Below are positions 2,772 through 20,071 of a stretch of DNA of 25,125 nucleotides, piece after piece. The stretch lies in IMG/VR virus record IMGVR_UViG_3300016649_000566, positions 1-25,125 of that record; one strand, given 5' to 3'. Below the pieces are notes generated by a model. That model was given only the letters and a program-made list of their open reading frames with translations, made no database searches and had not been told where the DNA came from. The position numbers and the translations under genes were made by a program. The DNA is from a virus. Lineage: Duplodnaviria > Caudoviricetes. Every line of letters begins with the position of its first letter. The stretch's first letter is position 1.

Positions 2772-3035
2772 CTATTTTGCGTGATACGCCCACCAATCGT
2801 GGATCGAGACCATAGGTACTGCCGTTCTGTCGCGCCCGGTCACGTTAGTCCAGAACGTTAGCAGTCGGTCGCCTTCGGAGTGTCGAGGTTCAGCTCCCTG
2901 CTTCCAGCCGATCAACGTGGTTCGGGCCACCCCGATTGACTCTGCAATCGCCTGCATCGGAAGGCCTGCGCGTGATATTTCGTTGATCACTTGAAACCAA
3001 TCAATTGAGCGCGCCGGCGGCGCCCGACGGCTCAT
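2772..3035 (-). CDS. Small XRE/Cro-like HTH protein of phage type (87 aa)
   Basis: MQAIAESIGVARTTLIGWKQGAEP is a classical HTH; ATG at 3035. Confidence 0.75.
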   Translation of the reverse strand: MSRRAPPARSIDWFQVINEISRAGLPMQAIAESIGVARTTLIGWKQGAEPRHSEGDRLLTFWTNVTGRDRTAVPMVSIHDWWAYHAK

Positions 3036-3334
3036 CAATCACCCACAAACGCGCGCGCGCGCGAGGCAGACCGTTTGAGGTGCGATAAAAACGTCTTCAA
3101 ACGCTCACCTTTCATAAAAATATCTACTGGCTACATTGGCCGCAGGGCCAGGGCTGACTGCCACTAAGATGCTTGCCGAGAGCTTACGTTTCCTCATCTG
3201 CCGAGGTGAGGGTAAACGCGCAGGAGATGTAGGCATTTGGTTGACAAAAAAAGAAATCTGCAATCTTTTCAGGTTGACAGATCCTGTTATCTGCCAGATT
3301 ATTCTCGGAAACCAGACCCAGCAGGCTTTCCTCC

Positions 3335-3925
3335 ATGGCTATAAAGAAACCCTCACATTTCAGCCCGGACTTATCTAATGAGCGTCTCGAGGTCATCGCT
3401 CGGGCTTTGCTGGACATTCGTCACACGACGATCCGTGAACTAAATTCAAAATATGATTCGAATTATAGCCGTGAAGGGACTGCGTTTGAGCGATCTCGCA
3501 ACCTGTTGATAGATATGTGTCTAGAGAAAGGGCATGACTGGTTACGCTTGGCCAGTTCCGCGATGGATGTGACCTTTCGTATTGGTAGCATTCCGTGCAG
3601 GTTTTTCAGGGATGATCCCGAGTCGCCCAAGAAAAGAGGGTTCTTCAAACGAAATCTGGTCGATAACCTCTTCGCGACTGATGAGGGCGAGCCAGTCATG
3701 TGGCGATTCGTTGTAGAACGTGCGGAGACTGACGAGGATGAGGATCGTGTTCATTTGATAGGTTTTAACGCCTTTCAAGAGAAAGTATCGCAGTGGACTT
3801 TTGGTGATTCGATTCGTTCTCTTCACTCTGTGGATAAAGAAGTTCCTGTGGCTAAAAGCTTGCGGCCTGCTGCTGTCGGCTTGCTTGATGATGAAGCTGC
3901 TAGTGATGAAGCGGTTAGTGAGTAA
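3335..3925 (+). CDS. Hypothetical protein, putative toxin partner of the HTH-metallopeptidase (RmrT-like), 196 aa
   Basis: ORF ends 3 nt before the HTH-ImmA/IrrE gene; both lie in a visibly more AT-rich block. The toxin role is inferred from gene context only. Confidence 0.6.
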   Translation: MAIKKPSHFSPDLSNERLEVIARALLDIRHTTIRELNSKYDSNYSREGTAFERSRNLLIDMCLEKGHDWLRLASSAMDVTFRIGSIPCRFFRDDPESPKKRGFFKRNLVDNLFATDEGEPVMWRFVVERAETDEDEDRVHLIGFNAFQEKVSQWTFGDSIRSLHSVDKEVPVAKSLRPAAVGLLDDEAASDEAVSE

Positions 3926-3928
3926 TTG

Positions 3929-5029
3929 ATGAGCGCAATTTTTGATGGAGCCTCCCTTCGGCTAGCTAGAATATTCAATGCCATGGCTCTGGAAGAGGTT
4001 GCCGAGCAAGTAGGGAAAACTCGGCAATACCTACATAAGTTAGAAACAAATCAGAGTTCCCCCACTGATGCGTTGTCGCAAGACCTAGCTGATGCGTTGA
4101 ACGTCGAAGTTGGCTTTTTTTCGTCCAGGCAGCACAGATTGCATGAAGATCAGTTTCATTTTAGAAAACTGATGAGCACCACGAAAACGATAAAGCAGGT
4201 TGCAATTGCTCGCGGTGAGGTAACAAACCTCTTTATCAAGGCGTTAGAAAAAGAGCTTCGACTACCTACGGTAAATATTCCCAGCATCCCAGAAATTCAC
4301 AGCACCGACTGTATCGAAAAAGCTGCTGAAGCATGTAGACAACAATGGGATCTTGGGCTCGGGCCGATTGAGAATATGACGCGTCTGGCCGAAAATCTGG
4401 GTGCAATCGTGATGTCTTTCGATGGTATCTCTCAAGAGATTGATGCTTTATCGGTAGCGGTTGAGCGGCCTTTTATTGTGCGGAACACTGCCAAGGAAAG
4501 TAATAGCAGACAACGTTTTGATCTAGCTCATGAGTTGGGCCACCTAGTTATGCACGAAGGCGTTGTTACAGGTGATAGGTTAACCGAGAATCAAGCGAAC
4601 AGATTCGCTAGCTCATTTCTTGTTCCTCGTAGCATGATGATAAAGCTGTTCCCTAGACCTACAGGTACGCGACTGGATTGGAAGGGGATAAGGGAGTTTA
4701 AACAAACTTGGAAGGTGAGTAAGGCCGCTATTTTGTATCGCGCTAGACAGCTCGAGTTGATCTCAGATGCACAGTATAGAACTGGCGTGATTACTCTGAA
4801 GAAGCATGAAGGAACACATGAGAAAGATGATTATCTAATCCCTTCAGAGCCGCCTGAAATAATTGGCGCCTCCCTCAATCTTCTAGCTAAACGTAAAGGG
4901 ATACAGCTTTCTGATATTGCTACCATACTTCAGGTCAAGCCTGAGTTTTTAAAAGAGCTTCTCGGCACTGGATATGAAAATCACTATGCGGTTACTCCTA
5001 TCGGGGGGCATCTCCGCTTGGTGAAATAG
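3929..5029 (+). CDS. XRE-HTH + ImmA/IrrE (peptidase M78/DUF955) zinc metallopeptidase, RmrA-like antitoxin (366 aa)
   Basis: N-terminal HTH LRLARIFNAMALEEVAEQVGKTRQYLHKLE; RQRFDLAHELGHLVMH (HExxH) followed by ENQANRFA. Confidence 0.9.
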   Translation: MSAIFDGASLRLARIFNAMALEEVAEQVGKTRQYLHKLETNQSSPTDALSQDLADALNVEVGFFSSRQHRLHEDQFHFRKLMSTTKTIKQVAIARGEVTNLFIKALEKELRLPTVNIPSIPEIHSTDCIEKAAEACRQQWDLGLGPIENMTRLAENLGAIVMSFDGISQEIDALSVAVERPFIVRNTAKESNSRQRFDLAHELGHLVMHEGVVTGDRLTENQANRFASSFLVPRSMMIKLFPRPTGTRLDWKGIREFKQTWKVSKAAILYRARQLELISDAQYRTGVITLKKHEGTHEKDDYLIPSEPPEIIGASLNLLAKRKGIQLSDIATILQVKPEFLKELLGTGYENHYAVTPIGGHLRLVK

Positions 5030-5079: not shown

Positions 5080-6048
5080 TTATCGAAATGCCGGGTCTGC
5101 GCTATCCAAGGTACTTAGGGAGCTGGCAGGTATGTTTCTACAGATCCGCTGTAGTTTTGCTTCTAGGATATCAGCCCGACCCCTCTCCCTGTCTGCTATC
5201 AGACCCGCTTGCTGCAACGCATAATCAACCTCTGCTAACTGATTAATCCGTTTTTCTAACGCAACCTCACGACCATCGAGTTCACGCTGAAGGAGTTCGA
5301 GTTGTGTCTTTTGTCGCATGAGTGCAGTCCGCCGATTCTGTAGGGCCGCCTCAGCGGCACTTTGGAGCTTGACCTGTGTTACCGAAGCCTTAGCCCGAGC
5401 CAGTAACGCCGTATAACCCTGCGTATGTATGCCCATAGCGGCGGCCGCTAGGTCTGATCTGGCAATACTTGGTTCGACTGCAACGAGGGATTGGTAATAC
5501 CGGGAAACCTTCTGGTGAGGCGCTTTGGCCCCCTCAATACCACGAGACAGTCCGAAAGGCTTCCCACACCAATGATGGAAGTCGGTTTGCATCTTACGCA
5601 GCTTGGCGGGGCCTCCGAGGAAGTCACGGGCCGACAAGCGCCCGTCACGTGTTAGAGGTGTGACGTAAGCAACAAGATGCGGCGTTCTCTCGTCCAGGTG
5701 CACCTCGGCGCACACAATGTTTGCTGACCCATGACGCGCCTTGAGCCATGCCAAGGCTCGATCAAAGTAACCGCCGGTGTCAGGCATCGCCCCGCCATGT
5801 CTAGCAAACGCCTCAGGGCTTGCTGTAATCAAATATTCGATGCAGATCACCGCTCCCTTCCGTCGCTTTTGCGGAAGCCTGGCCAAGACTGCGCGACCCA
5901 GCTCGACGGCGCTTGTTGCACCAGCCATATGCATGCTGGGGGTGCTATCGGAGTTCGGCGTTGGCATCTCTCGGTATGTGTGCCGCCCCGATCCCAGTAC
6001 CCCTGTGATCGCTTTGAGCTTTTTTGTTCTTAGTATTGCGTACGGCAT
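5080..6048 (-). CDS. mobV: MOBV (Mob_Pre) family relaxase (322 aa)
   Basis: Starts MPYAILRTKKLK...HTYREMPTPN (motif I His), EYLITASPE (motif II), VHLDERTPHLVAY (motif III HxDExxPH), then LSARDFLG...MQTDF and a coiled-coil C-terminus. ATG 6048 is preferred over the track start at 6096. Confidence 0.92.
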   Translation of the reverse strand: MPYAILRTKKLKAITGVLGSGRHTYREMPTPNSDSTPSMHMAGATSAVELGRAVLARLPQKRRKGAVICIEYLITASPEAFARHGGAMPDTGGYFDRALAWLKARHGSANIVCAEVHLDERTPHLVAYVTPLTRDGRLSARDFLGGPAKLRKMQTDFHHWCGKPFGLSRGIEGAKAPHQKVSRYYQSLVAVEPSIARSDLAAAAMGIHTQGYTALLARAKASVTQVKLQSAAEAALQNRRTALMRQKTQLELLQRELDGREVALEKRINQLAEVDYALQQAGLIADRERGRADILEAKLQRICRNIPASSLSTLDSADPAFR

Positions 6049-6115
6049 ACCGGCCCCGTGCTGACGGTCTTTATCTTCAGCCTGCGGGTGGAGCAAAGAT
6101 CAGCGCAAGTCACCC

Positions 6116-6158
6116 CAAGCCTTCAGCTTGTGTACTCACTACACAAAGCACGCTTTGT
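6116..6158 (-). other. Putative MOBV oriT (pBBR1/pMV158-like)
   Basis: Minus strand reads ACAAAGC-GT-GCTTTGT (IR, 6143-6158), then G, TAGTGAGTA (6133-6141), CA, and a second hairpin CAAGC-TGAAG-GCTTG (6116-6130), ~70 bp upstream of mobV. This is the IR + TAGTGAGTA layout I recall for the pBBR1 oriT. Confidence 0.75.
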
Positions 6159-6319
6159 TGTTCGCCACGTGCCGTGGAAGGTCATTGGAGCAGGTGCGCG
6201 CGTCTGTGGCCGGCTATCAGGCTTCCCGGTCTTCTGATGCCAATGCGGAGCATCCTTGTCAGCGGCTCGGTGTTGGCACCGATTGCCATCATTCAGACAT
6301 TCGATATATGGAGAAAACG

Positions 6320-6580
6320 ATGAGCAACGTATCCGATGAGCAACCAATCGAATTCATCCGCTTGCGGGAAGTGAAAAGACTCACTGGCCTCAGTACAGCC
6401 ACCATTTACCGCATGGCAGTCAGCGAGACTTTCCCGAAACAGGTGAAACTCGGAACAAAGGCGGTGGCGTGGATCAAATCCGAGGTGCTGGATTGGAGCC
6501 GTGAGCAAGTCAAACGCTCCCGTGGGCATGATCTGCCTCCTGCTCCTAATGATCAGCAACCGATGAGCAACCAAGGCTAG
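6320..6580 (+). CDS. alpA: AlpA-family transcriptional regulator / RDF (86 aa)
   Basis: FIRLREVKRLTGLSTATIYRM...FPKQVKLGTKAVAWIKSEVLDW is canonical AlpA. GGAG RBS precedes ATG 6320. Confidence 0.9.
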   Translation: MSNVSDEQPIEFIRLREVKRLTGLSTATIYRMAVSETFPKQVKLGTKAVAWIKSEVLDWSREQVKRSRGHDLPPAPNDQQPMSNQG

Positions 6581-6747: not shown

Positions 6748-6776
6748 AAAAGACCCGCATCAGCGGGTCTTCTTTT
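6748..6776. terminator. Bidirectional Rho-independent terminator ending the long leftward operon
   Basis: Stem AAGACCCGC (6750-6758), loop ATCA, GCGGGTCTT (6763-6771), with an A run on the left and a T run on the right; just after the stop at 6790. Confidence 0.8.
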
Positions 6777-6789
6777 CTGCGTCATCAGG

Positions 6790-7041
6790 TTACTTTTTCA
6801 ACTCAGCGATCTTTTGGCGCTCTTCCAAAGCCTTTCGCTCCAGGTAAAGGGACAAGAGCCCCTGACCGTTTGATTGACCAGCGTGGCTTCGCAAAAGCAC
6901 CAGGTTGAACAATGGGGCGAGCACTAGCAGCACAACCAAAGCAATCTGCCACCCTCCACTCGGCATCCCTTCTTCGCTGATTAGGAATACCACCACCCCG
7001 ATCAGGGCCAGATTCAAAACGATACCGAGCAGTCGCATCAT
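6790..7041 (-). CDS. Small two-TM membrane protein (83 aa)
   Basis: Two hydrophobic stretches (LLGIVLNLALIGVVVFLI; IALVVLLVLAPLFNLVLL) and a charged C-tail; starts 2 nt after the stop of the 2037-aa gene. Confidence 0.75.
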   Translation of the reverse strand: MMRLLGIVLNLALIGVVVFLISEEGMPSGGWQIALVVLLVLAPLFNLVLLRSHAGQSNGQGLLSLYLERKALEERQKIAELKK

Positions 7042-7043
7042 GG

Positions 7044-10000
7044 CTATTTTTTCCCTGTGAGAAGTCCTTTCATGAACGCAGCAGCGTCCTCCGGCTCTTC
7101 ATCCCCAACCGTTATATCCCACAGGTAAGTGCCTTGCCTGGTGAGCGGTTTGACCGGGATGCCTAGCAGGTAGCCAGTTGCCGTTACAGCAGATTTGACC
7201 ACTTGCCCTGGGTCTTTGTCACCACTTGCTACGCCAGCGACGGCAGAGGTTAGCTGGCGGCCTGCATTGATCGCCTGCCATGCAGGTGACAACGACCCTG
7301 CGTGACCGCTCAGTGCGGAGCCGATAGTGTCCCGAATGACCGGAAAGCCAGAGACACCGAAACCCAGTGTGCTTTTCGCCATCCAGGCTGCGGTGTTCTC
7401 GTCCTCTTCTGGGCCCTTACCCGTCAGCAGATCGCCGATGACTCCCTGAAAGAACGCCAAAGCCAGCATTGAAGCTGCGGCACTGGCGACAGTTCTCGTC
7501 CCTTGGCGAGCCTCAAAGGCCAGGTCTCGGTTCTGGTTGTAGTAGGCGCTGAACGGTGTGTAGAACATCGTCAGCAAGCGCATTGCGGCGCCCTGGTCTT
7601 TGCGTTGGATTGCCGCGATGTCCATGGCTCCGGTGCCGCCTTGGGATTGCCGTACAGCCTTGTCACCATCCAACACTGCGGCCGTGCTTTCCTTGCCTGC
7701 TGCAACACCTTCACGGTAAGCCGCGAGCCAAATCGCGCCCGAGATGCCCCGATCTAGGTACCCCAGCAGATTGAACGAGAACCGTACCAGGTCGGCTTTC
7801 TTGCGGAAGAACGCATTGCGGCCGATGAGGGCGCTCATGTTGGATTGCAGTCGGCCGTCTTCCATGTCCCAGCGTAGGCGCATCGCAGGAGAAGCCTCGG
7901 TGATCATCTGGTAGGTATCAACCGGCGACCGCACGCCTTCAAGCAGGGCCGTAGCGAGTTCACGAGGCTTCACGTACAGCAGGCCAGGTATAAGTCCAGC
8001 TGCCTGGGCCAGTAGGGTTGTTGTCGAAAGCCCTAGTCCTACGATGGACGTGTTTGTCCGTGCCGTGTCGAGGAACTGGTTGAAGTTGCCAGTCTCCGGA
8101 GGGTTTCGGTCATTAGCGATGGCCCTCAACCAGGGCAGGAATGCATCAGCTCCGCGCGGGCCCAGCTTATTGATGAGCACAGCCCGAACGTAGGGATCCT
8201 GCGTAAGGCGGTGGGCGTCCTGCAACGCTTCCCGGTGGGTCAGGTCGTGGACATGCTGGGCTAGGCGCTGGGGGATGGCGCTGAGGTCGAGCAGTAGTGG
8301 CCCTGACACGCTCTCGTTACGCTGGTTGGTGAAACCGTTACCCGGTAGCGCTCCTTCAAACCCTTCACCGAACAGCTCGCCGCCGACTGCCGCTGGCGGT
8401 GCGCCTGCACGCTTGCGGTCATAGATGATTGGGAAGTAGCCACCGCGGTATTCACCGAAGGCGGTTGTGATTGGTTTCGGCTCAATGCGGGGAGGCTCCA
8501 CACCGGAGAGGCGTTTGTACATTGCTGCGATATCGGGCCACAGGCCGTCGAACGAGTCCCATACAGACTGCACCAGATCCCAATCCTGTTTGTCGAGGCG
8601 TCCCAGCATGTCAGCCAGTGATGCTTCATCGACCTTGTTCCCTTTCAACAACTTGTTGCGGTTTGACTCGTTGCCGGTGTTGAGCGCGTGCATGATTAGC
8701 TCGCGGCGGTTGAATGATTTTCCAAGGCTGGGGATGTGGAACCGATCTGCCAGGCGTTCGGCGTTCATGTCCGCAAAGCGCTCAACTATCGAGCGGATGC
8801 CGGCATTGAACAACTGACGCTCATTGGCTTGGGCCTCTGCGAGTGGGCTCCAGATCAACTGGTGCCAGGGGCCGCTGGTGTCCCTGCCGTCTAAGCGGTT
8901 GATCACGTTCTCCATCCGCGTCAATGAGGCATCCAGCCCCTGCAGAAGACCTACTGCCTTGTCACCGATGGTTTCGCTGCTTTCGGATACAGCCACTTGT
9001 CGTGCGCGTACGGGCACATTTGTGTCTAACGCAGCTATGAGATCAGTCCTTGCCTGTTCGTAATCGCGCTTGTCCTTGCGGTTCAGCAGCTTGTTTTTCA
9101 GCCTGGCCATATGCTCGATGTTTGCCACTGCGTCACGTAGGCCGCCAAGCTCCTCGAATGTCAGTTCCCGATAGTTGACGCGGGCGCTCTGTTCAATCAG
9201 GTGTTGCGGTACCGCGACGATGTTGCCGGCGGCCTCTTGCTCCCTGACGAACTGGGCGAGGCTACGGCGACGATCAACCTGCGGGCCGCTGACCTTGCGG
9301 AACTCGTACTGATCCAGCAGTCCCTCGATTTGCTCCAGGTAGTTGGCCCCGGCTTTGCCTATGCGCTCCCGGGTTGCTGGCTTCTCAAAGCGGCGCATGA
9401 AGGTATAAATCCGGTCTTCTTCCTTTCGGGCAGCTGTCGCTTCCCGGAACAAGTAATGATTCAGCAACTCCCGTTGTTTGGCCTCGGCGGCCTCTTGCCA
9501 GCGGTTTTTCGTGGCGAAGTTGAAGGCGTCCCGGTTGGCCTTGCGCTCGGCATTGAGATACAGGTGAGGCTGGATATCTCGCACAACCTTGTCCGCGATC
9601 ACCTGTTTGGCAACTGAACGGATAGCCTCCAGAGGAGGTATGGCATCGTAGGCATCGTTGCGCAGAGCCCGAGAGTCGGCATCCTGAGCCCTCTGCACCT
9701 TGTCGACCTGGCGGCGAAGACGATCAATAGCGCGCAGCTCTTCGCGGAGAACCCTGGCACGATCATCGTTGTGCACTGCCTCAATGGCACGGTCTGCCAA
9801 AGAGCCGTCGTTAAGCATGTCGCCATACTCGGCGCGCATCCTGGCGTCTGTTTCCGCTTGGATGAGTTCCTTGCGTGCACGGGCACCTACCATGGCCTGC
9901 ACCAGTTCATCACCTGATGTGTACCCGAACTGTTCGGCAACCAGGTCGGGATGAATCCCATCATCGCCTGTCATGCCGCGCAGGCGTGTTACGACCGTCT

Positions 10001-13000
10001 TGCCGTAGCGTTCCAGCAGCGGTTCGCGCAGCAGTTTTACCGGCTCGCCAATCGTCCCATCGGTCTGCACCCCTTTTCGCAAGTAGTCTTGAACGCGATA
10101 CACCGGCTGTGAGTCGACGTCTTTGGTGACGTCAGCCAGCATCTTCGCGCGCGCATCCTTCCACCACTTTTCCTGCTCTCGGGTCAGCTCGCGTAGCGAC
10201 TCGGCTGTCAGTCGTTCCTCTGCAGCCTGACCAGCCTTGTAGGCGGCTGAGTGATAAGCCTCGAACTCGGCCGGTGACATGCCGGCGGCCTGGGCATCGC
10301 TGAACAAGGTGCGGAAGGGGGCTTGAGCAACAGAAATTTCATCATCGGTGGCCAACAGTCGATCAAACACCCGACGCACGTCGTCATTGAGTTGGACGTT
10401 GAGCCGACTGGCATCGCGATAGATCTGGGTCAGCCACGCCTTGAAGCGTGAAAAAGCCGACTGCAATGCTGCGCTGGGGGCCTTCCCTTCGCGCAAGTAC
10501 GCTTCAAAGCCGCGCGCAAACTGTTCGTGCTGATCGACTTTGATGTCTGTGCGCTCATTGACGCCGAACCAATCCAGAATTGTCTGGTAGTCCTGTTTCA
10601 CCTGATCCGGAACGTCCGTGCGCGATGCGAGATCACCCATCACTTCAAGGTAAAAATGCCCGGTTTCATGCAGGAAGGTAGAAAGGTTCGCCTTGTCGGT
10701 CAGTTTGATTTCGAACTTGCGGTCGGCGCCGAACTGGATAAAGCCGCGTGTACCGTCCTCTGATTGATCGAAGCGGATGGCGTCGCTCCCGAGCAATGCT
10801 TTTCGTACTGCGGCGTTGTCCAAGACGTTCAGATCAAGGCCAGATTGATCAAGTGCTCGTTGCAGGTCATCTAGCGAGCCGCGTGCATTGAGAAGCTCTT
10901 GGTTGAGATTGGCGGGCGCTGATTGGCGTTGGCCGCGCAGTTCTTTGTCCAGTGAGGCCAAGAGCATTTCCGGCGTTGCGGTTGGCACATTTCCCAAGTA
11001 TCCGGCCTCTGCAGCTTGAGTGGCCATATCGTCCAGACTGCGCCCACCCTTCCTGGCAATTCGGTTGTTACCTCGACGGCCCACATCAGCATCACGGGCC
11101 GCCAGCTCGCCACCATCGTCGCGTATGCCGCCGCGCTCACGAATGAAGTCGATTAGCGAGGCGCCGTAGATCTTCGCGTCGTCGGGAACATCGGCGGCGC
11201 GCAGGCGATCAATCAGCAGGTCAAACTGATCAGATCCGCCAGGCTTGCGCAGCACCTCAGGAATGTCCTGGCCGATGCGGAGCCGATACTGGTTGAACAG
11301 ATCGTAAGGGTCGATACCTGAGCGCTCTCCCAGAGAGCGAAAGGCGGACTGATAAAGCGATGCCTCTCTGTCTGCTGTCTGGGCTTCGCGACCAATACCA
11401 AGCAACTGACCGCGAACATCTTCATACACTCGGCGATCCGATGCGGCGACATGGTCTTGCTCAACACGATCACGAAGGCGCTCAAGCTCCTCAGGGGCGC
11501 GTTGCTGGAACTCAGCAAGTTCTCGTAGCGTCATCGCGTCGGGAGTTGCGCGCATATCCTGCTCGAGGCCGCGGTGGTGCCCGTCCTTGGCAATGACCGA
11601 CGCCCACTTCTCCAAAGGGATTGAGATGTCTGCACCAAGGGCCAGGGCTTCTCCAAGGGCATCGGGGTTGCCTGTCGCCGCTTTGGCGAACTGCTCAGGA
11701 TCGAGGTTGTTCTCCTGGAAGTAGCGTTGGAACTGCTCGGCGGGTACCAGGATGTTTTCTACATTGCCGCCAGCCTGCTCTTTCAGCCTGGCCACGAGTG
11801 CTTCGGCTCGCTGTGGTGAGCGTTTGAACATCTTGGAGTTCTGAGCCATGTCACCCAGTTGTTGGACGGCAGCCAGATCTTTCTCGATTTGCCAATATCG
11901 TCTGCCAGAGCTGGCACTTGCGATAGCGACATCAACCGGCGACGTTGCCAAACCCAAGAAGGCGTTCAAGAACATTTCTCCCCCAGTTGCCTGTTCGCCG
12001 ACGGCAGCAGCACCTGCGACCGTGCCACCAACAGCGCCTGCAGCTTGGGCTACACCTTCAACTGCGACGTTGCCCAGCTTTCCTGCTATGCCGCGGCCGG
12101 CAAACGGAATCGGCACCATGCCGCCTAATGCGTTGATCGCGGCTTCGGCCGCAGTGCGCTTGAAGCTGTAGGCGTATGCCTGGTCTAAGTCGCCGGTTTT
12201 CTTGAGCCCTTCGGCCAGGTTCTCTCCTGCACCGCCGGCGATGCTGGTACCGAGGTTAACCCCTCCCACTACGATTGCCTTCTCAGCCGCACGTTGCGCA
12301 AAGGTGCTGGCAAGACGACTGACAGCGAAGTTCTTCACCGGTTGCGCCGCAATCCCGCCTATAACCCCGCCTGCCAAAAGGCTAGGTAGCGATTCAGTCA
12401 GTGCGCTGCCGATCAATCCAGGGTTGCGTAATGCGTACAGGGCGGTATCACTCGCCGCGCCACCCACACCAGCACCGCCGTCGCGGGCTTTGTCGAATAT
12501 CTGTCCTGCGAAAGCAATACGTTGGTCGCGTGGTAGAGCCAGGTATCCCTGGGCGGTGTTGGTGATGTTGCTTTCCGTGCGGCCCGTATAGTTCGGCTCT
12601 TCTCCCTTGTTGCGATCCAAAGCGCTCTGCGGTGCCAGTGCGTTCACGAAAAAACCACCAACCGAAGACAGCGCCCTGTCCAGCATGTTGGCGCCGGCCT
12701 CACCGATTATTCCCAGTTGACCAAAACCCTTGGTCAGTGCATCGCTCTTACTCGTTGAGTGCTGTTGACCGGACTCTTTGACGAAGTTATCAAAGGCACC
12801 TTCGACGTTGGACAGCCCGTCGATATCGTCGTGGGCCACGCTGGCGTTGTCCGGGTCAGTCAGGAACTGGTTGGTGGCCGGCGCTCGCTCAATCAGGGCG
12901 TCGTAGTCCACGGATGCCAGCTTGGCTTGTCGCTCAACCTGCTTGCGGTTGCGAACAACCATGTCAGGAGCGAGCCCTGTCAGTTCGGCCAGGCGTTGAA

Positions 13001-13157
13001 TGCTGGCTTGCTCATCCGGGTTGTTGTCAGCAACGTAGCTCAGAGCCGTGCGGGGGTTGGGCTTGCTCTGCTGGCGCTGGATGGCAACGTCGTACTTGTT
13101 TGCCTCTACGCCCTGAGGTTCTTCTTTGCCGGCGAGGATGTTGTCGTACTGGCTCAT
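7044..13157 (-). CDS. Large internal virion / DNA-ejection protein (T7 gp16-analogous, polyvalent type) with zincin-like HExxH motif (2037 aa)
   Basis: Mostly helical, with Gly/Ala-rich hydrophobic segments near both ends and STFLHETGHFYLE...HEQFARGFEAY. It is the last and largest of three size-graded genes, as in podovirus ejection operons. ATGA overlap with the upstream gene. Confidence 0.8.
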   Translation of the reverse strand: MSQYDNILAGKEEPQGVEANKYDVAIQRQQSKPNPRTALSYVADNNPDEQASIQRLAELTGLAPDMVVRNRKQVERQAKLASVDYDALIERAPATNQFLTDPDNASVAHDDIDGLSNVEGAFDNFVKESGQQHSTSKSDALTKGFGQLGIIGEAGANMLDRALSSVGGFFVNALAPQSALDRNKGEEPNYTGRTESNITNTAQGYLALPRDQRIAFAGQIFDKARDGGAGVGGAASDTALYALRNPGLIGSALTESLPSLLAGGVIGGIAAQPVKNFAVSRLASTFAQRAAEKAIVVGGVNLGTSIAGGAGENLAEGLKKTGDLDQAYAYSFKRTAAEAAINALGGMVPIPFAGRGIAGKLGNVAVEGVAQAAGAVGGTVAGAAAVGEQATGGEMFLNAFLGLATSPVDVAIASASSGRRYWQIEKDLAAVQQLGDMAQNSKMFKRSPQRAEALVARLKEQAGGNVENILVPAEQFQRYFQENNLDPEQFAKAATGNPDALGEALALGADISIPLEKWASVIAKDGHHRGLEQDMRATPDAMTLRELAEFQQRAPEELERLRDRVEQDHVAASDRRVYEDVRGQLLGIGREAQTADREASLYQSAFRSLGERSGIDPYDLFNQYRLRIGQDIPEVLRKPGGSDQFDLLIDRLRAADVPDDAKIYGASLIDFIRERGGIRDDGGELAARDADVGRRGNNRIARKGGRSLDDMATQAAEAGYLGNVPTATPEMLLASLDKELRGQRQSAPANLNQELLNARGSLDDLQRALDQSGLDLNVLDNAAVRKALLGSDAIRFDQSEDGTRGFIQFGADRKFEIKLTDKANLSTFLHETGHFYLEVMGDLASRTDVPDQVKQDYQTILDWFGVNERTDIKVDQHEQFARGFEAYLREGKAPSAALQSAFSRFKAWLTQIYRDASRLNVQLNDDVRRVFDRLLATDDEISVAQAPFRTLFSDAQAAGMSPAEFEAYHSAAYKAGQAAEERLTAESLRELTREQEKWWKDARAKMLADVTKDVDSQPVYRVQDYLRKGVQTDGTIGEPVKLLREPLLERYGKTVVTRLRGMTGDDGIHPDLVAEQFGYTSGDELVQAMVGARARKELIQAETDARMRAEYGDMLNDGSLADRAIEAVHNDDRARVLREELRAIDRLRRQVDKVQRAQDADSRALRNDAYDAIPPLEAIRSVAKQVIADKVVRDIQPHLYLNAERKANRDAFNFATKNRWQEAAEAKQRELLNHYLFREATAARKEEDRIYTFMRRFEKPATRERIGKAGANYLEQIEGLLDQYEFRKVSGPQVDRRRSLAQFVREQEAAGNIVAVPQHLIEQSARVNYRELTFEELGGLRDAVANIEHMARLKNKLLNRKDKRDYEQARTDLIAALDTNVPVRARQVAVSESSETIGDKAVGLLQGLDASLTRMENVINRLDGRDTSGPWHQLIWSPLAEAQANERQLFNAGIRSIVERFADMNAERLADRFHIPSLGKSFNRRELIMHALNTGNESNRNKLLKGNKVDEASLADMLGRLDKQDWDLVQSVWDSFDGLWPDIAAMYKRLSGVEPPRIEPKPITTAFGEYRGGYFPIIYDRKRAGAPPAAVGGELFGEGFEGALPGNGFTNQRNESVSGPLLLDLSAIPQRLAQHVHDLTHREALQDAHRLTQDPYVRAVLINKLGPRGADAFLPWLRAIANDRNPPETGNFNQFLDTARTNTSIVGLGLSTTTLLAQAAGLIPGLLYVKPRELATALLEGVRSPVDTYQMITEASPAMRLRWDMEDGRLQSNMSALIGRNAFFRKKADLVRFSFNLLGYLDRGISGAIWLAAYREGVAAGKESTAAVLDGDKAVRQSQGGTGAMDIAAIQRKDQGAAMRLLTMFYTPFSAYYNQNRDLAFEARQGTRTVASAAASMLALAFFQGVIGDLLTGKGPEEDENTAAWMAKSTLGFGVSGFPVIRDTIGSALSGHAGSLSPAWQAINAGRQLTSAVAGVASGDKDPGQVVKSAVTATGYLLGIPVKPLTRQGTYLWDITVGDEEPEDAAAFMKGLLTGKK

Positions 13158-15286
13158 TGGTTGGCCTCATTGAACAGGTTGAGGATCTCGGCATCACTCG
13201 CAGTGCGGCCGTGGCGCTTAAGCGCCGCGGTAATCTGCTCGTGCTCATCGGCGGGAATCTGCTTGATGTCCGTGACCCGAACGTTGTCCCCAGGCTTCCG
13301 CTCAAACGCGCGTTGCTTGTTGGTGAAGAAACCGAACAGTCCTGACCCTTCAACCGTTCCTTCGATGAAGGCGTGATCCACGATCTGTTGCACCTGCTCG
13401 TGTGTGGCCTTCTTGTTCTGTTGCGCCTCTAGCCCCCGGATCTGGTCATCCACATAGCGACGTGCCGTTGCCACTTGCTTGGCTACCGCTGATCCCGGTT
13501 TAGGGCTGGAAGGCATGCCTGCGTTGCGCAAAGCGTCGTTGAACAGAGCTGTGCTCGTCGAGATCGATGCTGTTGCTGCTGGCCCGCCGGTCAGCCGCTT
13601 AATCTGCAGGTCGGTCAGGCGGGTGAAGTCCTCATTGCTCAGCTTGTCACGCATGTCGAGCAGGTTGACTTCGTTCCCTTGGGCGATGAGATCCCTGGCA
13701 TTGGTATACACCTCAGGATCGGTTTGCTGATTCTGCTTGTACGCCATCAATTGCTTGCGGTCTTTTGCAGGTAGCTTGGCCCAAAGGTCGGGATCCAAGT
13801 CTTGCCATTTGTTGCCCCTGAGCATGAAGTCCCAAGCCTGCCCTTGGTTCTGAATGTGCTCCTGCTTTTGCTGATCTTGCTGCCAACTGAATCGGTCGCG
13901 TGCATCAGCGATGGCGATGCGTTTCTGATCAGGGGTTAGATCGCTGCGAGCATCAATGCCCTTGGCGATTTGGCCGAATGTCGGTTCGGCCTCCTGCTGG
14001 ACGCTGCTGAGAACTTTCTGGGTATAGTCCTTCGTTTCTTTGAAGGGGATACCCTTGATGAAGTCTGCTTCGCTGATTTCGCCCGTCCTAGGGTCACCCA
14101 ATTTCAGCTTGCTTTCATTCTTGCCCGTGGTGTTGGTGCCGTTGATCCAATCGTTAACCATTCCAGGGCCCGCGTTATAGGCGGCGACGGCCAGCGCGTC
14201 CGAACCATCGAACGTTTGGCGCAGCTTCCCGTAGTACGCCTCTCCAAGTGAGCGGTTGTAGTCTGCATCGGTCTTGAATCGCTTTTCGTCCCATGGCAAG
14301 CCAGCAGCCTGAGCAGCCTCAGGGCCAGTGCTAGGCATCACCTGGGCGATACCTACCGCTCCACGATTGGAGGTAAGTGGCGCTCCGGATGCGTCGACCT
14401 GGCGACCGTCGCTCTCCGCCTGAAGCATTGCCGCGAACACCGATCCGCTCCCGCTTTTGGCTTGCTCGACCGCCTGTGCTCCAACGCTGACGCCGATGCT
14501 TCGATCCAGCAGCGGGTTGAGGGTTTTAATCAGGCTTTCTCGGTTCTTCAGGGTGAGCGATGAATATGGGCCGTCGTCCCAGTTAGACAGATCACGCTGG
14601 ATTTGCTGCAGTTGTTCCGGATTGTTCCCGGCGCTGTGGATCCGCGCCAGTGCGTTAGCGGAATAGGCCGACTGTTCAAAGGTGCGCACCTCTTTATCCC
14701 AGCCATCGATGCCATAAGCGCTGCGGCCAACGGTCTGAACACCGTCCGCCCGCGCTCGATTGAGGATCTGGCCCAGGTCAGCATCTGGCCTGGCGGCTGC
14801 GTTCTCCAACAGATCAAACCGAGACCGGAGCTCACTTTTAGCCAAACCTGTGCGGGCCTCCAGCACCGATCCTTGGATCTGTTGAAGCTTGTTTGCCTGC
14901 ATCTTGCGTACAGCGAGATTCAAATGCTCTTGGTCAGATGCATCCAGGCCTGCGACTTTCACCGGCTCCAGCTTGCTGATGAATTGCTGATAGCTTGATT
15001 CGCCTTGGTCAGGTTGGACTTCCAGGGTTTTCAGCTTGCCGCTGAGCTCGTTTACCCCGGTGTCTAGTTGGCTCTCATAGTCCAACAGCGCGTTGCTTAC
15101 CTTGACCTTAGAGAGCTCCTGGTCTTCTTTGTTTTTCTGGTCAAGGAAGGAAAGCGCTGCGTTCTGAACTGTGCCGGCTAACTGTTGCGCGCCACGATTC
15201 AGATTATTTGGGTCTGGTGTAATAACGCGATTTTGGGGCGCCTCTGGCAATACACGTACGCCCGGGCCAAGTGGTATCTGTGCCAT
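13154..15286 (-). CDS. Internal virion / ejection protein with lytic transglycosylase (SLT) domain (710 aa)
   Basis: SLT motifs AMLQAESDG (catalytic Glu), GAVGIAQVMPST, AVAAYNAGPG and ETKDYTQKV sit in a helical Q-rich scaffold. ATG 15286 overlaps the upstream stop (TGATG) and has a GAGGA RBS. Confidence 0.88.
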   Translation of the reverse strand: MAQIPLGPGVRVLPEAPQNRVITPDPNNLNRGAQQLAGTVQNAALSFLDQKNKEDQELSKVKVSNALLDYESQLDTGVNELSGKLKTLEVQPDQGESSYQQFISKLEPVKVAGLDASDQEHLNLAVRKMQANKLQQIQGSVLEARTGLAKSELRSRFDLLENAAARPDADLGQILNRARADGVQTVGRSAYGIDGWDKEVRTFEQSAYSANALARIHSAGNNPEQLQQIQRDLSNWDDGPYSSLTLKNRESLIKTLNPLLDRSIGVSVGAQAVEQAKSGSGSVFAAMLQAESDGRQVDASGAPLTSNRGAVGIAQVMPSTGPEAAQAAGLPWDEKRFKTDADYNRSLGEAYYGKLRQTFDGSDALAVAAYNAGPGMVNDWINGTNTTGKNESKLKLGDPRTGEISEADFIKGIPFKETKDYTQKVLSSVQQEAEPTFGQIAKGIDARSDLTPDQKRIAIADARDRFSWQQDQQKQEHIQNQGQAWDFMLRGNKWQDLDPDLWAKLPAKDRKQLMAYKQNQQTDPEVYTNARDLIAQGNEVNLLDMRDKLSNEDFTRLTDLQIKRLTGGPAATASISTSTALFNDALRNAGMPSSPKPGSAVAKQVATARRYVDDQIRGLEAQQNKKATHEQVQQIVDHAFIEGTVEGSGLFGFFTNKQRAFERKPGDNVRVTDIKQIPADEHEQITAALKRHGRTASDAEILNLFNEANQ

Positions 15287-15825
15287 CAGGAATTCCTCAC
15301 CCAGGCTGGATTGGTATTCAGTTCTTGCGTTTGGCCCTGCATGTCTCGACCTGCAGCGGATGCTTTCCACCCGCTAGCAATCCGAGCTCCACTGGAAAGC
15401 ACGGTGCCAATGGATTGGGCGTTCGCGTTGGATCGAGCCTGGCTTCCTGCCAGCTTGTAGTTGCTGGTATCGACGGAGCCGCGGGCCTTTTGGTTCTGGC
15501 CATTGAAGATGGTCAACACCGCGTCTTCCTCGGCATTGCCGATGATTTCTTCGTTGATGTTGACCGCGGTGCCTTCACCAACTTCAACACCAGACCCTGC
15601 AAGGGCCGTGTTGGCCTCACTGGCCTGGTTGCGGGCAATCCGTCGGATACGGTCGGCCTGCACCATTGAGGCACTGGCGGCCGCGTTGGCGTCGTTTTGT
15701 GCCTGCTCGGATTGAGCATCAGCGTTCAAGCTGGCCTGCTTACCGGCCTGCTGCGTTGAGTAGACCGAATAGGCCGTACCGGCAACGGCAGTGGCTAAAG
15801 CGACAGCGGTGGTGTATCCAGACAT
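15286..15825 (-). CDS. Small internal virion / ejection protein, T7 gp14-like (179 aa)
   Basis: Hydrophobic Ala-rich N-terminus (TTAVALATAVAGTAYSVYS), A/Q/N-rich helix, ALAGSGVEVGEGT motif and a Gly/Ser-rich segment near the C-terminus; GGAG RBS. Confidence 0.72.
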   Translation of the reverse strand: MSGYTTAVALATAVAGTAYSVYSTQQAGKQASLNADAQSEQAQNDANAAASASMVQADRIRRIARNQASEANTALAGSGVEVGEGTAVNINEEIIGNAEEDAVLTIFNGQNQKARGSVDTSNYKLAGSQARSNANAQSIGTVLSSGARIASGWKASAAGRDMQGQTQELNTNPAWVRNS

Positions 15826-15827
15826 GG

Positions 15828-16286
15828 TTATTCTCCAGTGGTGATGGTCAGGTCGTTGCTTTGCTGGCGCGACATGAGTGCTGTGGGTTGATTGGTAAAT
15901 TCAGATTCGGCGTCTTCAACCGTTTTGGCCTGGGTGGCAAAGGTCATGGTCAGGTCGGTATCGGCATGTGCTACAAACACCTGCTTGCGGCCGGCCTGTC
16001 CCGGGACGATGTGGTATCCCTTCAGCTCAAGTGTTTCGCCACCGATGAAAACCGTGACGTGGCCCGAGACAATCAGCAGAGTGGGGATATTGATCAGGGC
16101 GCCAGTGATCATTACGCCGGCGGGAATGCGGATGGTTCGGGAGTAGAGTCCCGCGTGAAAGTGGTGCTGGGTCTGGATGGCCACTTGCTCCATACCAAGC
16201 AAATGCGACTCCAACCCTCGGACTTTCTCAACGTCTGCACTTGTCATAGCGGGGAGTGATGGAGCCGCGGAGGCGATGCTGTTCAT
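15828..16286 (-). CDS. Phage cupin-like beta-rich protein (152 aa)
   Basis: HHFHAGLYSRTIRIPAGVMITG...LIVSGHVTV...GRKQVFVAHADT is a cupin-type pattern I associate with phage virion gene regions. ATGA-coupled to the GNAT gene. Confidence 0.7.
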   Translation of the reverse strand: MNSIASAAPSLPAMTSADVEKVRGLESHLLGMEQVAIQTQHHFHAGLYSRTIRIPAGVMITGALINIPTLLIVSGHVTVFIGGETLELKGYHIVPGQAGRKQVFVAHADTDLTMTFATQAKTVEDAESEFTNQPTALMSRQQSNDLTITTGE

Positions 16287-16744
16287 GCGAGCACCTTCAG
16301 GAATACCTGGTTGGTTTCGCGGTATCCGGAGCGGGGCAAAACCATCGCCAGCCTGCTGCCAATGGGCGCGCTGATCATCAGGGCAGATGCGCCCAGTGCT
16401 AGGGCGCGGGCCTCGGCTGCACGCAACAGCTTGATACCTGCCCCGCCCTTGCGTGCATGCGGCTCAACGAAGAATGACTCCATCGCGCAGATGCGACGGC
16501 CCGCGTAGTGCGGCAACCCATACACCAGCAGTGAGGCAAGCCCGACCAAGTCAGGGCCGAACGCACCGAGAATGTGGAGTGCGCCGCTCGCCTCCATTGC
16601 CCGATACGTTGAAAAGCAGGCATCAACCTCGCCGAACTCAGGGATGCTCGATTCATCGCCATAGGCAGCCAGTAACTCAGGCAATGCGCCGGCCTGCTCC
16701 AGCTCGGCCATCGTGCAGGTTCGAATAATCGTTTCAATGCCCAT
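16283..16744 (-). CDS. GNAT-family acetyltransferase (153 aa)
   Basis: ESFFVEPHARKGGAGIKLLRAAEARA is acetyl-CoA-binding motif A. Its position ahead of ejection genes matches podovirus morphogenesis clusters. Confidence 0.85.
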   Translation of the reverse strand: MGIETIIRTCTMAELEQAGALPELLAAYGDESSIPEFGEVDACFSTYRAMEASGALHILGAFGPDLVGLASLLVYGLPHYAGRRICAMESFFVEPHARKGGAGIKLLRAAEARALALGASALMISAPIGSRLAMVLPRSGYRETNQVFLKVLA

Positions 16745-17057: not shown

Positions 17058-17410
17058 GGCCGGTTCTCCAGAACAGATGTGTGTTCCCACCTGTTCACAC
17101 TTCTTTGTTTTAGTGGGAACGCTCGCAGCCCACGGCCGCTCTGGCTGTTCCCACCGTTCCCACTGTTCCCACCACTTTTTCCCTTCGCCCGATGCAGTAG
17201 CTCGAAAGCGTGGTGCGCGAATCGAGTCTTCTCAGCACGATCACCACAATGTGTTTCTGTGATTCTGAAAACGGTGGGAACAGTGGGAACCGGGGGAACG
17301 AGCCCGGCCAGTAAGGGCTCCAGGCGTTCACACTTGTTCCCACTATGAGAATTGGTGGGAACAGAGCTGCTGCACGAATTTGGCTGGATGGGGGTGCGAA
17401 GACTGGTCAT
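17054..17410 (-). CDS. Questionable 118-aa ORF spanning the iteron array
   Basis: ATGA overlaps at both ends (17407-17410 and 17054-17057), but VPPVPTVPTV and GGNSGNGGNS are simply translations of the iterons. Confidence 0.35.
   Translation of the reverse strand: MTSLRTPIQPNSCSSSVPTNSHSGNKCERLEPLLAGLVPPVPTVPTVFRITETHCGDRAEKTRFAHHAFELLHRAKGKSGGNSGNGGNSQSGRGLRAFPLKQRSVNRWEHTSVLENRP
17083..17362. repeat. Iteron array, putative replication origin (12 copies of GTTCCCAC and variants in both orientations)
   Basis: Forward GTTCCCAC at 17083, 17147, 17156, 17165, 17336; reverse GTGGGAAC at 17113, 17274, 17283, 17355; variants GTTCACAC at 17093 and 17326, GGGGGAAC at 17292. It lies directly downstream of the helicase, where SaPI/PICI origins sit. 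Confidence 0.85.
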
Positions 17411-19203
17411 TGGCCGAGTGCCTCGCGATCCATGGCCTCTGAGTCGACTACGTACAGGCCGCTAGTGCCCCCTCCTGGAAGTCGGTATTTCTTGGTATGG
17501 CGCTTCTTGTCGGAGTCGCGTTTGGCAAGGGCTCCCGCGCCTTCAAGAGCTTTGACGACGCGGCTCAGTCCATAACCGTGCGCTGCTTCGATCAACGCGG
17601 ACTTGTTGAATAGGTAAAGCCGCTTGGTGCCGGACATTTCCCAATAGCCGGCACGGTTGGAAACCTTCACCTCTGACTGACCTTCGGCTACATCGGAGAA
17701 TCGGCTGCTACCGTGGCGGTCAATGAAGTCCAGGATGCCGGACAAGATCTGGCGGTCTTCAGCGTTGCCACTGCCAACTCTGTTGAGCCATTCGCGGTAC
17801 AGCAGTTGGCAGTCCGCCAGGGCGCTACCTTCAGGCCATGGGAGCAGTTCGTAGGCGACTGCCATTTCGCAAGCCAGCGCGATGACCGCAAAGCGGTCGG
17901 CGACTCGTCCGGCTTGCGCATTGTCTTCCGCGAATGTGGCGCGCACCTTGGCGAAGTCTTCCAGTAACCCTGGACGATCATCGCTAGCCAGTAGCCGTTC
18001 AACGAACGCCGGCCCGACGTGGCCATGACTGCGAGTGACAGCGACAGTCAGTTGGCGGTGGAAGTCCGCACCCTCAAGTCCGTGCAGTTCGTCAAAGGCG
18101 CGGTGGGTGCGAGTGCCCGCGTTCACGTCGACCATGCGCAACTCGGCACCGGCGTGGGCGGCATTGCCCGAGATCGCAGCGTGCTCGGACAGAGACCGCT
18201 CGCCGCTTGAGAGTGCAAGCAGGCGCCAATTCAGCCTGGCTCTGCCTTCGCGCTCCCGGGTCATCGTGCCTTTGCCTTGCCCGTTTGCCAGTGCATAGGC
18301 CATTTCTTGAACGCGCTTGGGATCGGCGCGCTTGATTTCATCCAATGGAAGGAGGGTGTCGTTTCGTGATGACGCCTCAATTTCCAAACCACCCTTGGTC
18401 ATGTCCCACGATGCCGCGAAGACACCGGGGTCACCCCATACTGATGATCCAACCAACTGAACCAATGACTTGCCGCTTGAGCTGTCACCTACGAGGTGAA
18501 CGCCACCGCCGAGTACGCCGACCAGGCTCAGCAGTGGCCCAGCAAGCGCGCAGCCGATGGAAAGTGTCAGTACCGGGTTGCCGGCACATTTGGCCGCGAC
18601 TTCCAGTTGCCAGGTGGCCAGGTCTCCCTTCGTCTTGAACAGATTTTGCGCTTGGCTGCTGGCTTGGTAGCGAACCTTGTCACTACCGATAGTGCGTCCA
18701 GGCAAAACAAACGCCCCAGACTCATGCCAGCCTGGCCGGCTTGTGGTGACGAAAACATCGGTTGGGTGCTGCTCAAGCAGGTATTCCATGAAGTGGCTGC
18801 GCTTCTTGAGGGAAATGATCACCCCCATAGAAAACAGAGCTCGCCTGGCTTCCTCACCGCTGCCGCCAAACACCTCCATGGCAATAATCCAATCCTTCAC
18901 CCCGCTGTCGGTGACCATGCGGAGCAAGCGACCCTCACTGCCGTCATCGCTGTTGGTAGTGCGAGCCACGACTTTGACGGGGCTAGAGATCCACTCATCG
19001 GTGATTGCTCGGTCATCGCTGGCGCCATCAACGTCGTCCTGATCTGAATCACGCTTGAAGCCGTGCCAGTAAACGCCCGGCTTGAGTTTGCGGCCTTTCT
19101 CGTTGGTGACCCATTGGTCGTACACCGCCCAGCAGGGACGATTAGGCGCAATTACTGCGGCATCAGGCCGAAGGTTGATCACGTTGGTGTCAGGCTTGGC
19201 CAT
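17407..19203 (-). CDS. DUF927-domain replication helicase/initiator (598 aa)
   Basis: Walker A GDSSSGKS, Walker B LLPLDEI, YALANGQGKG, WRLLALSSGE and RVADRFA motifs. ATG 19203 overlaps the end of the primase gene. Confidence 0.88.
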   Translation of the reverse strand: MAKPDTNVINLRPDAAVIAPNRPCWAVYDQWVTNEKGRKLKPGVYWHGFKRDSDQDDVDGASDDRAITDEWISSPVKVVARTTNSDDGSEGRLLRMVTDSGVKDWIIAMEVFGGSGEEARRALFSMGVIISLKKRSHFMEYLLEQHPTDVFVTTSRPGWHESGAFVLPGRTIGSDKVRYQASSQAQNLFKTKGDLATWQLEVAAKCAGNPVLTLSIGCALAGPLLSLVGVLGGGVHLVGDSSSGKSLVQLVGSSVWGDPGVFAASWDMTKGGLEIEASSRNDTLLPLDEIKRADPKRVQEMAYALANGQGKGTMTREREGRARLNWRLLALSSGERSLSEHAAISGNAAHAGAELRMVDVNAGTRTHRAFDELHGLEGADFHRQLTVAVTRSHGHVGPAFVERLLASDDRPGLLEDFAKVRATFAEDNAQAGRVADRFAVIALACEMAVAYELLPWPEGSALADCQLLYREWLNRVGSGNAEDRQILSGILDFIDRHGSSRFSDVAEGQSEVKVSNRAGYWEMSGTKRLYLFNKSALIEAAHGYGLSRVVKALEGAGALAKRDSDKKRHTKKYRLPGGGTSGLYVVDSEAMDREALGQ

Positions 19204-20071
19204 TTGTGAGCTTCCAGTTGGCGAGGTCGTTGAAGTCTGTGAGGTCATCGGGTGCACCTTCTGGCCACTCAGGGAAAGCCACTTGGCCGCCTACGGCCGC
19301 CGCCGCCGCATTTGCTGCTGAGCGTCCTGGGTTGCCGTCTGTGAGTCGGTCGTCGTCGCCGGCTATAACGATTGGCTGACCTGGGTAACGGGCACGCAGC
19401 CCCATAGCTGCCGGGATCAAGTTCCCTGCGTTCATGGCTGCGGCGACGACGTAGCCGCCGTGCTGGTGAAGGCTGGCGGCCGTCGCCCATCCTTCGCAGA
19501 TGCAAAGCACAGAACCCGGCTCAATGATGCCCAGCGGCGAATAGGTGCCCTTCACGCGGCCGCCGGGTAGGAAGCGCTTGGCTCCGTCCGGGGCGATCCT
19601 TTGTAGGTTGATCAGGCGACCATCCAAGTACAGAGGGATGAGCAGGTCAGCACCTCGCTGGCGCAGGCCATGAGGGCGCACTGACTTGGCGACTAGGTAT
19701 GGATGATCTGGGTTAGCGCGCCGTGCATTTCGCCACCAGCGGTCGGCAAGTTCCGATGCCTTCTGCTGGCGCTGGAGTTGCTCTGCTTTGCGCTGGCGTC
19801 GTGCCTGGTCAACTCGCTCGCGGATCTGTGCGGCCTCGCGGGCGTCCACAGGCTCACGACTGCACCAGGTGCTGGCGCTGCCGGACTTCCAGCTGCCGAA
19901 TGCACCGGAAGCGATTCCGTCCAAGTACAGGACATACCAGCCATTGAGAGTGCCGGGCTTGTCTTCTGGAACGCGGAACCGGTGAATGGCACCGTCTGGC
20001 AGGGGAAGCCAGTCAAGCTGGCCATAGGCAGCTTGGAGTGCGTCACGGAAAAGGATGATTGCGTCAGTCAT
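19190..20071 (-). CDS. Toprim-domain DNA primase (P4 alpha-like N-terminal module), 293 aa
   Basis: HPYLVAK, LINLQRI, ICEGWATAAS (Toprim Glu), IAGDDD (DxD) and DFNDL motifs. Confidence 0.9.
   Translation of the reverse strand: MTDAIILFRDALQAAYGQLDWLPLPDGAIHRFRVPEDKPGTLNGWYVLYLDGIASGAFGSWKSGSASTWCSREPVDAREAAQIRERVDQARRQRKAEQLQRQQKASELADRWWRNARRANPDHPYLVAKSVRPHGLRQRGADLLIPLYLDGRLINLQRIAPDGAKRFLPGGRVKGTYSPLGIIEPGSVLCICEGWATAASLHQHGGYVVAAAMNAGNLIPAAMGLRARYPGQPIVIAGDDDRLTDGNPGRSAANAAAAAVGGQVAFPEWPEGAPDDLTDFNDLANWKLTNGQA

Follow-up and report, generated by a model that had tools for sequence, protein, structure and literature searches.

A capsid-less, tRNA-integrated satellite of Pseudomonas carrying a hybrid podovirus-type gp14-gp15-gp16 set

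Described phage satellites hijack head size, packaging or tails. What a satellite with no capsid of its own would do with a set of genes resembling the DNA-ejection apparatus of a podovirus is the question raised by a stretch of 25,125 nucleotides of viral DNA (IMG/VR record IMGVR_UViG_3300016649_000566), referred to here as the window and numbered throughout from 1 to 25,125. The window is nearly all of one element that resembles the phage-inducible chromosomal islands (PICIs) and is integrated in tRNA-Phe of Pseudomonas, and 9,955 of its bases (40%) are taken up by a module of six genes, all on the minus strand, whose products include counterparts of gp14, gp15 and gp16. The element is a capsid-less, tRNA-integrated, PICI-like satellite, and the evidence supports it as a real, recurrent entity that is bounded by attachment (att) sites and carries a podovirus gp14-gp15-gp16 set. 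The set is a hybrid of two phage lineages, one represented by Purivirus UFJF_PfDIW6 (PfDIW6 below) and the other consisting of Pseudomonas prophages related to the temperate podophage YeP4 (PMC6548840).

The largest module protein (2037 residues) is 83% identical over its length to gp16 of podophage PfDIW6 and 33-39% identical to the proteins occupying the same slot in Carin1, HU1, AF and BPP-1, and its Atlas neighbour is 'Internal core protein' (0.94). In phages such as PfDIW6 the slot of the large gp16 lies between gp15 and the spike gene. The protein contains LPD22 (PF18834), a conserved HExxH at 830 and three weak hydrophobic or membrane segments late in its sequence, a combination that fits the injected polyvalent proteins described in PMC5512222. 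The 179-residue protein matches phrog_418, an internal virion protein family (E 1.6e-29), and aligns with PfDIW6 gp14, a member of PF24072 (T7_gp14), at 96% in hhalign (E 1e-9). The model of the 710-residue protein is all-helical around an SLT domain (residues about 275-436) that has a Z score of 15.7 to a lytic transglycosylase and retains the motifs AESDG, QVMP and AYNAG; the top PHROG labels of the protein read 'endolysin', and it is the SLT domain that they match. The order and character of these proteins are those of a T7-type ejectosome, with a gp14-family protein first, then a helical gp15 with a muralytic domain and a large gp16 with membrane segments. Profile and fold searches, which had been proposed as a check, bore out the family link of gp14 (by profile) and gave for gp15 only weak fold matches to the T7 and PhiM1 cores.

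The preliminary description of this DNA, made from its letters alone, had noted intact genes with tight junctions that fill about 40% of the window, and no head, packaging, tail or lysis gene. These points are confirmed, as all six open reading frames (ORFs) are intact and joined by ATGA or TGATG overlaps or by 2-nt gaps, and Pfam and PHROG scans of the 29 window ORFs recognised no head, portal, packaging, terminase, tail or lysis gene. Two further statements hold in part. The module does follow the origin in gene order, but not immediately, since a small ORF (16734-17090) intervenes; among the copies examined this ORF is found only in module-bearing satellites, where its ratio of non-synonymous to synonymous substitution rates (dN/dS) is 0.2-0.4. 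A hairpin does lie at the end of the module, but the scan calls it a terminator solely on the plus strand, and shuffled sequence is expected to give one site of this kind.

On the YeP4-like side of the module stand GNAT, cupin, gp14 and gp15 up to residue 250, and on the PfDIW6 side the remainder of gp15 together with gp16. Calculated per bin of 50 residues, gp15 is 26-58% identical to YeP4-like and 14-26% identical to Purivirus-type proteins over residues 1-250, and 10-30% and 40-84% identical to them, respectively, over residues 251-700. Sliding identity places the lineage switch near residue 250 in the window and identically in a divergent copy of the element (G701, below). Relative to PfDIW6, whose gp13-gp16 module has the same order (as do those of AF, HU1, BPP-1 and Carin1) and whose gp15 is 60% identical from residue about 255, the window lacks a T7-gp13-like gene and takes gp14 and the gp15 N-terminus from the other lineage. 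YeP4-like podophages and the related Pseudomonas prophages share with the window gp14 (up to 78%), GNAT and cupin (61-78%) and the gp15 N-terminus, and differ in having their own heads, tails and terminase and a core that ends with two proteins of about 650 and 840 residues. In models of the T7 ejectosome the N-terminus of gp15 contacts gp14 and its C-terminus contacts gp16 (PMC8954989), so that the junction in the satellite gp15 respects this split. By analogy, the helper-facing half of the module would be YeP4-like and the half facing the inner membrane Purivirus-like, a functional reading that is ours. The earlier description of a complete podovirus-type ejectosome in an element without a capsid was right as to the gp14-gp15-gp16 set and missed its hybrid nature. 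A prophage at L009:707-16114 has Purivirus-type gp15 and gp16 with a different head and tail, and the end motif of its gp14 resembles that of the satellite.

The two genes at the front of the module probably encode accessories rather than ejected proteins proper, since 73 of 80 viral loci have the GNAT next to the cupin, the pair being frequently placed between the terminase and portal genes. The pair occupies that position in BPP-1-like phages (e.g. L034:9537-10459) and follows the tail genes elsewhere. The GNAT is 61-78% identical to proteins of prophages of the YeP4-like lineage and matches, at 96% in hhalign, a paralogous GNAT that follows the tail genes there. It was also considered as a homologue of T7 gp13 and rejected, as hhalign gave no profile match to the T7-gp13-like protein. 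The model of the cupin (predicted local distance difference test score 85) is a plain cupin barrel matched to cupins by Foldseek, and the tail fibre suggested by its PHROG labels ('short tail fiber/adhesin') was rejected on this ground; the label 'short tail fiber' looks wrong.

The backbone of the element consists of an integrase, AlpA, an Ash-like protein, a Toprim primase and DUF927, followed by an iteron region (Pfam and PHROG scans). Integrase, alpA and primase/helicase share one direction, which is a PICI hallmark. No att core was found inside the window, and both sites lie outside it. One of them, attL, is the 3' end of tRNA-Phe about 210 nt past the window end, beyond the integrase, and attR lies about 2.6 kb beyond the left end; tRNA-Phe is directly upstream of the integrase in the complete chromosome G552 (98% identical) and in L159 (95%). 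The attL flank has 17 bp in common with the SLT gene; these coincide with the stretch coding for the QVMP motif, and the match was put down to chance. A near-identical contig of 28,107 bp from run X1, which may be the source of the window, continues for 257 bp beyond the integrase at one end and as far as attR at the other. This leaves about 2.55 kb of the element in the window unseen, a length into which capsid, portal and terminase genes would not all fit. The G552 copy is about 97% identical and runs for 25.7 kb from tRNA-Phe to an 18-bp repeat of the 3' part of the tRNA. In G701 a divergent copy (integrase 67%) occupies tRNA-Leu, with its 17-bp repeat at a distance of about 25.5 kb. One viral contig (24,454 bp), a relative and not the window itself, holds the same element permuted inside gp16, with about 22 nt absent at the join; it contains the 3' end of tRNA-Phe once, without the 5' part and with element genes on either side, and is thus an excised circle. 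Structural genes elsewhere in the att-bounded element had been named as an outcome that would speak against a satellite. Apart from G701's own gp14 and gp15, none was found when another 26 ORFs from G552, G701 and the circle were scanned, and these elements are thus without structural genes beyond the ejection genes. With sizes of 24.5-28 kb these elements fall outside the range of about 10-15 kb given for Gram-negative PICIs (PMC11364771).

The preliminary description had also allowed for the module being a one-off junction, and it is not. The full module is present in the window, G552 (in which L006 and L019 appear to be the same element), L007, the circle and G701. Of the four copies beyond the window, one is circular and one lies at another tRNA with another integrase; L159 is cut by a contig end inside gp16. 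At least half of the module's words occur in 18 runs from 10 studies, one run being the window's possible source, and among the members of the gp15 clusters are NCBI records of P. extremaustralis and of several species in the putida group. In run X1 the contig depth is 91 for the element and 81-86 for the flank, which as a weak measure gives no sign of amplification. The module is under strong purifying selection and is kept by selection. Measured against the window, dN/dS is 0.05-0.08 for gp16 and 0.06-0.09 for gp15 (five comparisons each), 0.03-0.15 for gp14 and 0-0.19 for the cupin (six each), and 0.07-0.16 for the GNAT in five comparisons. Synonymous divergence (dS) reaches 1.2 in gp16 and 2.5 in gp15, like that of replication genes such as DUF927. 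In a tree of gp16, the six satellite and seven phage proteins separate with support of 100/100, and the satellite proteins are the more diverse (85-99% compared with 92-98% identity). Outgroups HU1 and Carin1 gave an unresolved tree with long branches and the unrooted tree was used instead, so that it shows a split and not a rooted clade.

The identity of the helper is indicated by two features that lie far from the module, a helix-turn-helix (HTH) gene and, preceding it, a 19-nt motif of (CG)n type. Both are kept in the window, G552, L007, the circle, G506 and G701, where their flanks differ. Homologues of the HTH protein are 51-61% identical in YeP4-like prophages. The motif was found in 7 of 401 Pseudomonas genomes (a reversed control gave one match), three of which hold satellites (G552, G701 and G506) and four YeP4-like prophages (G383, G001, G524 and the unpublished G488, for which the prophage context rests on one search alone). 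It is absent from the other 50 of 53 genomes with a strong DUF927 match, and three further exact matches in viral contigs are prophages of the YeP4-like lineage; YeP4 itself has the HTH gene and not the motif. As the two features occur, among the genomes searched, only in these satellites and YeP4-like prophages, they point to YeP4-like temperate podophages of Pseudomonas as the likely helper. Purivirus was dropped as helper, since no non-coding sequence, HTH gene or motif is common to it and the window. Genome G001 holds both a truncated satellite at tRNA-Phe (L005) and a YeP4-like prophage (L231-L232) whose gp14 is 78% identical to that of the window.

Among known systems the closest is EcCIMP1, the only satellite with ejection-type genes found in the main texts of the openly readable literature. 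This island of E. coli MP1, 20 kb in size, has been proven to be a PICI and is mobilised by the podophage Kapi1, which excises and transduces it (PMC11773190). The claim that no known satellite carries only ejection machinery was therefore overstated. EcCIMP1 has the same layout as the window, being tRNA-integrated with integrase, alpA and primase, lacking capsid and terminase, and having genes resembling those for P22-type DNA transfer downstream of the primase and a second, reversed alpA at the far end; its authors propose the transfer-like genes as packaging candidates. EcCIMP1 differs in that its transfer genes resemble those of its helper, whereas the set in the window is T7/BPP-1-type, twice the size and hybrid between two lineages, in a Pseudomonas element of 25-28 kb with a MobV relaxase. 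A Charybdis preprint was rejected as a precedent, as it names the ejectosome only in its references. The T7 ejectosome (PMC8954989) has the same small-medium-large operon and a gp14 of the same family, and its muralytic domain may sit on gp15; it differs from the window in showing no structural match beyond the SLT domain, and the window gp16 has 2037 residues with LPD22 and HExxH. Capsid-forming PICIs and P4-like satellites share integrase, alpA and a replication module with the window, whose Ash-like gene recalls P4, and capsid, portal and terminase are absent from the window in the Pfam and PHROG scans. P4-like satellites carry the genes sid, psu and delta. Those scans of 29 ORFs gave no match to any of them. 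What is new here is the T7/BPP-1-type hybrid and the helper signature, satellites with transfer-like genes being known already from EcCIMP1.

A survey of 36 genomic DUF927 elements from 53 genomes (33 best matches, two next and one more distant) shows what else occupies the position after the origin. In overlapping categories, a lambda-type tail assembly protein is present in 20 of the 36, a tape measure protein in three, P22-type ejection proteins in three, this module or its front in three, a tail fibre piece in one and a capsid protein in one, and three contain none of the queries. The position is thus filled mostly with virion entry parts, and it appears to be a general DNA-delivery slot in this satellite family. 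Sister elements (L168-L202) carry tail assembly and lipoprotein genes, tape measure genes or P22-type ejection proteins (e.g. L169:8539-10843, L186:4839-8213, L182:5899-9554), and a phrog_7215 gene usually leads the slot (23/36).

The best reading, which can be called rather probable, is that ejection proteins encoded by the satellite take the place of the helper's own in helper particles, so that satellite DNA would enter the next cell through a channel made by the satellite. Induction of the helper would lead to expression of alpA, excision and replication, and through the HTH gene and motif the element would be tied to the late programme or the terminase of the helper. Helper-like gp14 and the gp15 N-terminus would dock on the helper portal and nozzle, and the Purivirus-like gp15 C-terminus with the single 2037-residue gp16 would replace the helper's last two core proteins at the inner membrane. 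In this way the satellite might evade exclusion or defences that target the entry proteins of the helper, or bring the extra domains of gp16 into the cell. A broader and more tentative proposal is that a widespread satellite family uses the slot to re-tool the entry of any helper, with tape measure or tail tip for long-tailed helpers and ejection proteins for short-tailed ones; gp15 would then act as an adapter, compatible with the nozzle and foreign at the inner membrane.

Several results weigh against the ejectosome swap. Matches to solved cores are weak (T7 core 9jyy_G, E 0.025; PhiM1 8vb2_I, Z 7.7, root-mean-square deviation 8.5, 255 aligned), and gp14 and gp16 had no match in PDB sequence searches. 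Genomes G552, G701 and G506 gave no capsid match to either lineage, the search for the Purivirus capsid being one without a positive control. No packaging gene was recognised in the Pfam and PHROG scans, leaving the HTH gene, the motif and the small ORF next to the origin as candidates. Two copies are truncated, G506 stopping after gp14 and L005 keeping only the gp16 C-terminus. Between the window and G552 the GNAT has seven non-synonymous changes to one synonymous, small counts that possibly reflect fast adaptation. Finally, three proteins (P0126-P0128) on contigs of 42.5, 59.5 and 67.8 kb have the same gp15 mosaic at 58-61% identity, so that the hybrid may have come ready-made from an unsampled phage.

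Of the competing explanations the one that fares best, itself unlikely, is interference or defence, in which the proteins would either be incorporated into the cores of the helper or work in the envelope, spoiling helper virions or blocking entry as Tai does for tails. Tail-assembly inhibitors are encoded beside the primase in PICIs (PMC11364771), EcCIMP1 contributes to immunity against its own helper, and the front half of the module, being helper-like, could assemble together with the cores of the helper; yet a poison needs no 6-kb gene at such low dN/dS with HExxH and the SLT motif of its partner intact, and the whole operon order is kept. It is rather improbable that an unsampled helper already has a hybrid core and that the satellite copy tops up or replaces like with like, for instance when the satellite shuts down the helper's late genes. 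The contigs of P0126-P0128 and the Purivirus-type gp15 and gp16 of L009 in a different phage background would agree with such a helper, but no donor phage with a hybrid gp15 was found in viral contigs, GenBank phages and two samples of 301 genomes, only the three satellites among the 80 cupin loci carry a close gp16, and P0126-P0128, which may themselves belong to satellites, show about 40% divergence. Transfer by MobV conjugation or passive transduction, with the module in a non-virion envelope role, is very improbable: the relaxase lies beside the module in five copies, but it is also present in the sister L182 without this module, the nearest relatives of all module genes sit in virion operons, and the helper-type HTH gene and motif are kept. 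Barely credible is a reading in which the element is what remains of a decayed prophage, or a chimera that arose once, and no longer has a function; the two truncated copies might be attributed to it, but it is largely refuted by five full open-frame copies at two integration sites and by synonymous divergence above 1 under strong purifying selection.

The features of the window are collected in the table. A MobV relaxase in a phage satellite suggests a second, conjugative route. The region 897-2687 is a cluster of excisionase-like small genes, one of which (2475-2687) is 84% identical to a gene beside the PfDIW6 integrase and recalls the excisionase cross-talk of EcCIMP1. In place of the defence cargo of the window (1-900 and 3335-5029), G552 has a RelA/SpoT-domain gene and an NA37 gene.

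Table. Features of the window, with positions, strand and basis of assignment
Feature	Position	Strand	Basis or remark
PD-T4-7-like defence gene	1..900	-	PADLOC
HTH gene	2772..3038	-	homologues just before lysis/head operon of YeP4-like prophages
19-nt (CG)n motif, candidate late switch or packaging signal	3046..3064	-	also in YeP4-like prophages
RmrT/RmrA (RosmerTA-like) defence pair, variable cargo	3335..5029	+	PADLOC
MobV relaxase	5080..6096	-	NF041497, above cut-off
Second AlpA, reversed, as in EcCIMP1	6128..6580	+	PF05930
Hairpin, likely terminator	6750..6771		between module and reversed alpA
Two-helix membrane protein, 83 aa	6790..7041	-	33% homologue after PfDIW6 tail spike
gp16-like large ejection/polyvalent protein, 2037 aa	7044..13157	-	83% to UFJF_PfDIW6 gp16, PF18834
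gp15-like helical protein with SLT domain, 710 aa from its ATG	13154..15286	-	PF01464, model, fold search
gp14-like small ejection protein, 179 aa	15286..15825	-	phrog_418, hhalign
Cupin-fold protein, partner of GNAT	15828..16286	-	model, Foldseek
GNAT-fold protein	16283..16744	-	PF00583
Small ORF, about 107 aa	16734..17090	-	between origin and GNAT
Likely origin, GGGAAC/GTTCCC iterons in inverted arrays	17080..17365		inverted repeat, sequence; role inferred
DUF927 helicase-like replication protein	17407..19257	-	PF06048, phrog_1139
Toprim primase	19190..20071	-	PF13362
Ash-like regulator	21748..22206	-	PF10554, E 0.004, below curated cut-off
AlpA regulator	22203..22424	-	PF05930
Tyrosine integrase	23920..25125	-	Pfam

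If the broader proposal on the slot is correct, satellite particles would resemble those of the helper on the outside and yet enter cells that exclude it. A satellite that took over the channel across the envelope would carry parasitism one step further, to a stage that follows adsorption and at which exclusion and entry defences operate. The naturally occurring gp15 hybrid would show at which of its interfaces the ejectosome has to fit the head and at which an exchange is tolerated, a question still debated for podovirus entry, and a named helper lineage together with intact copies in complete chromosomes makes the test direct.

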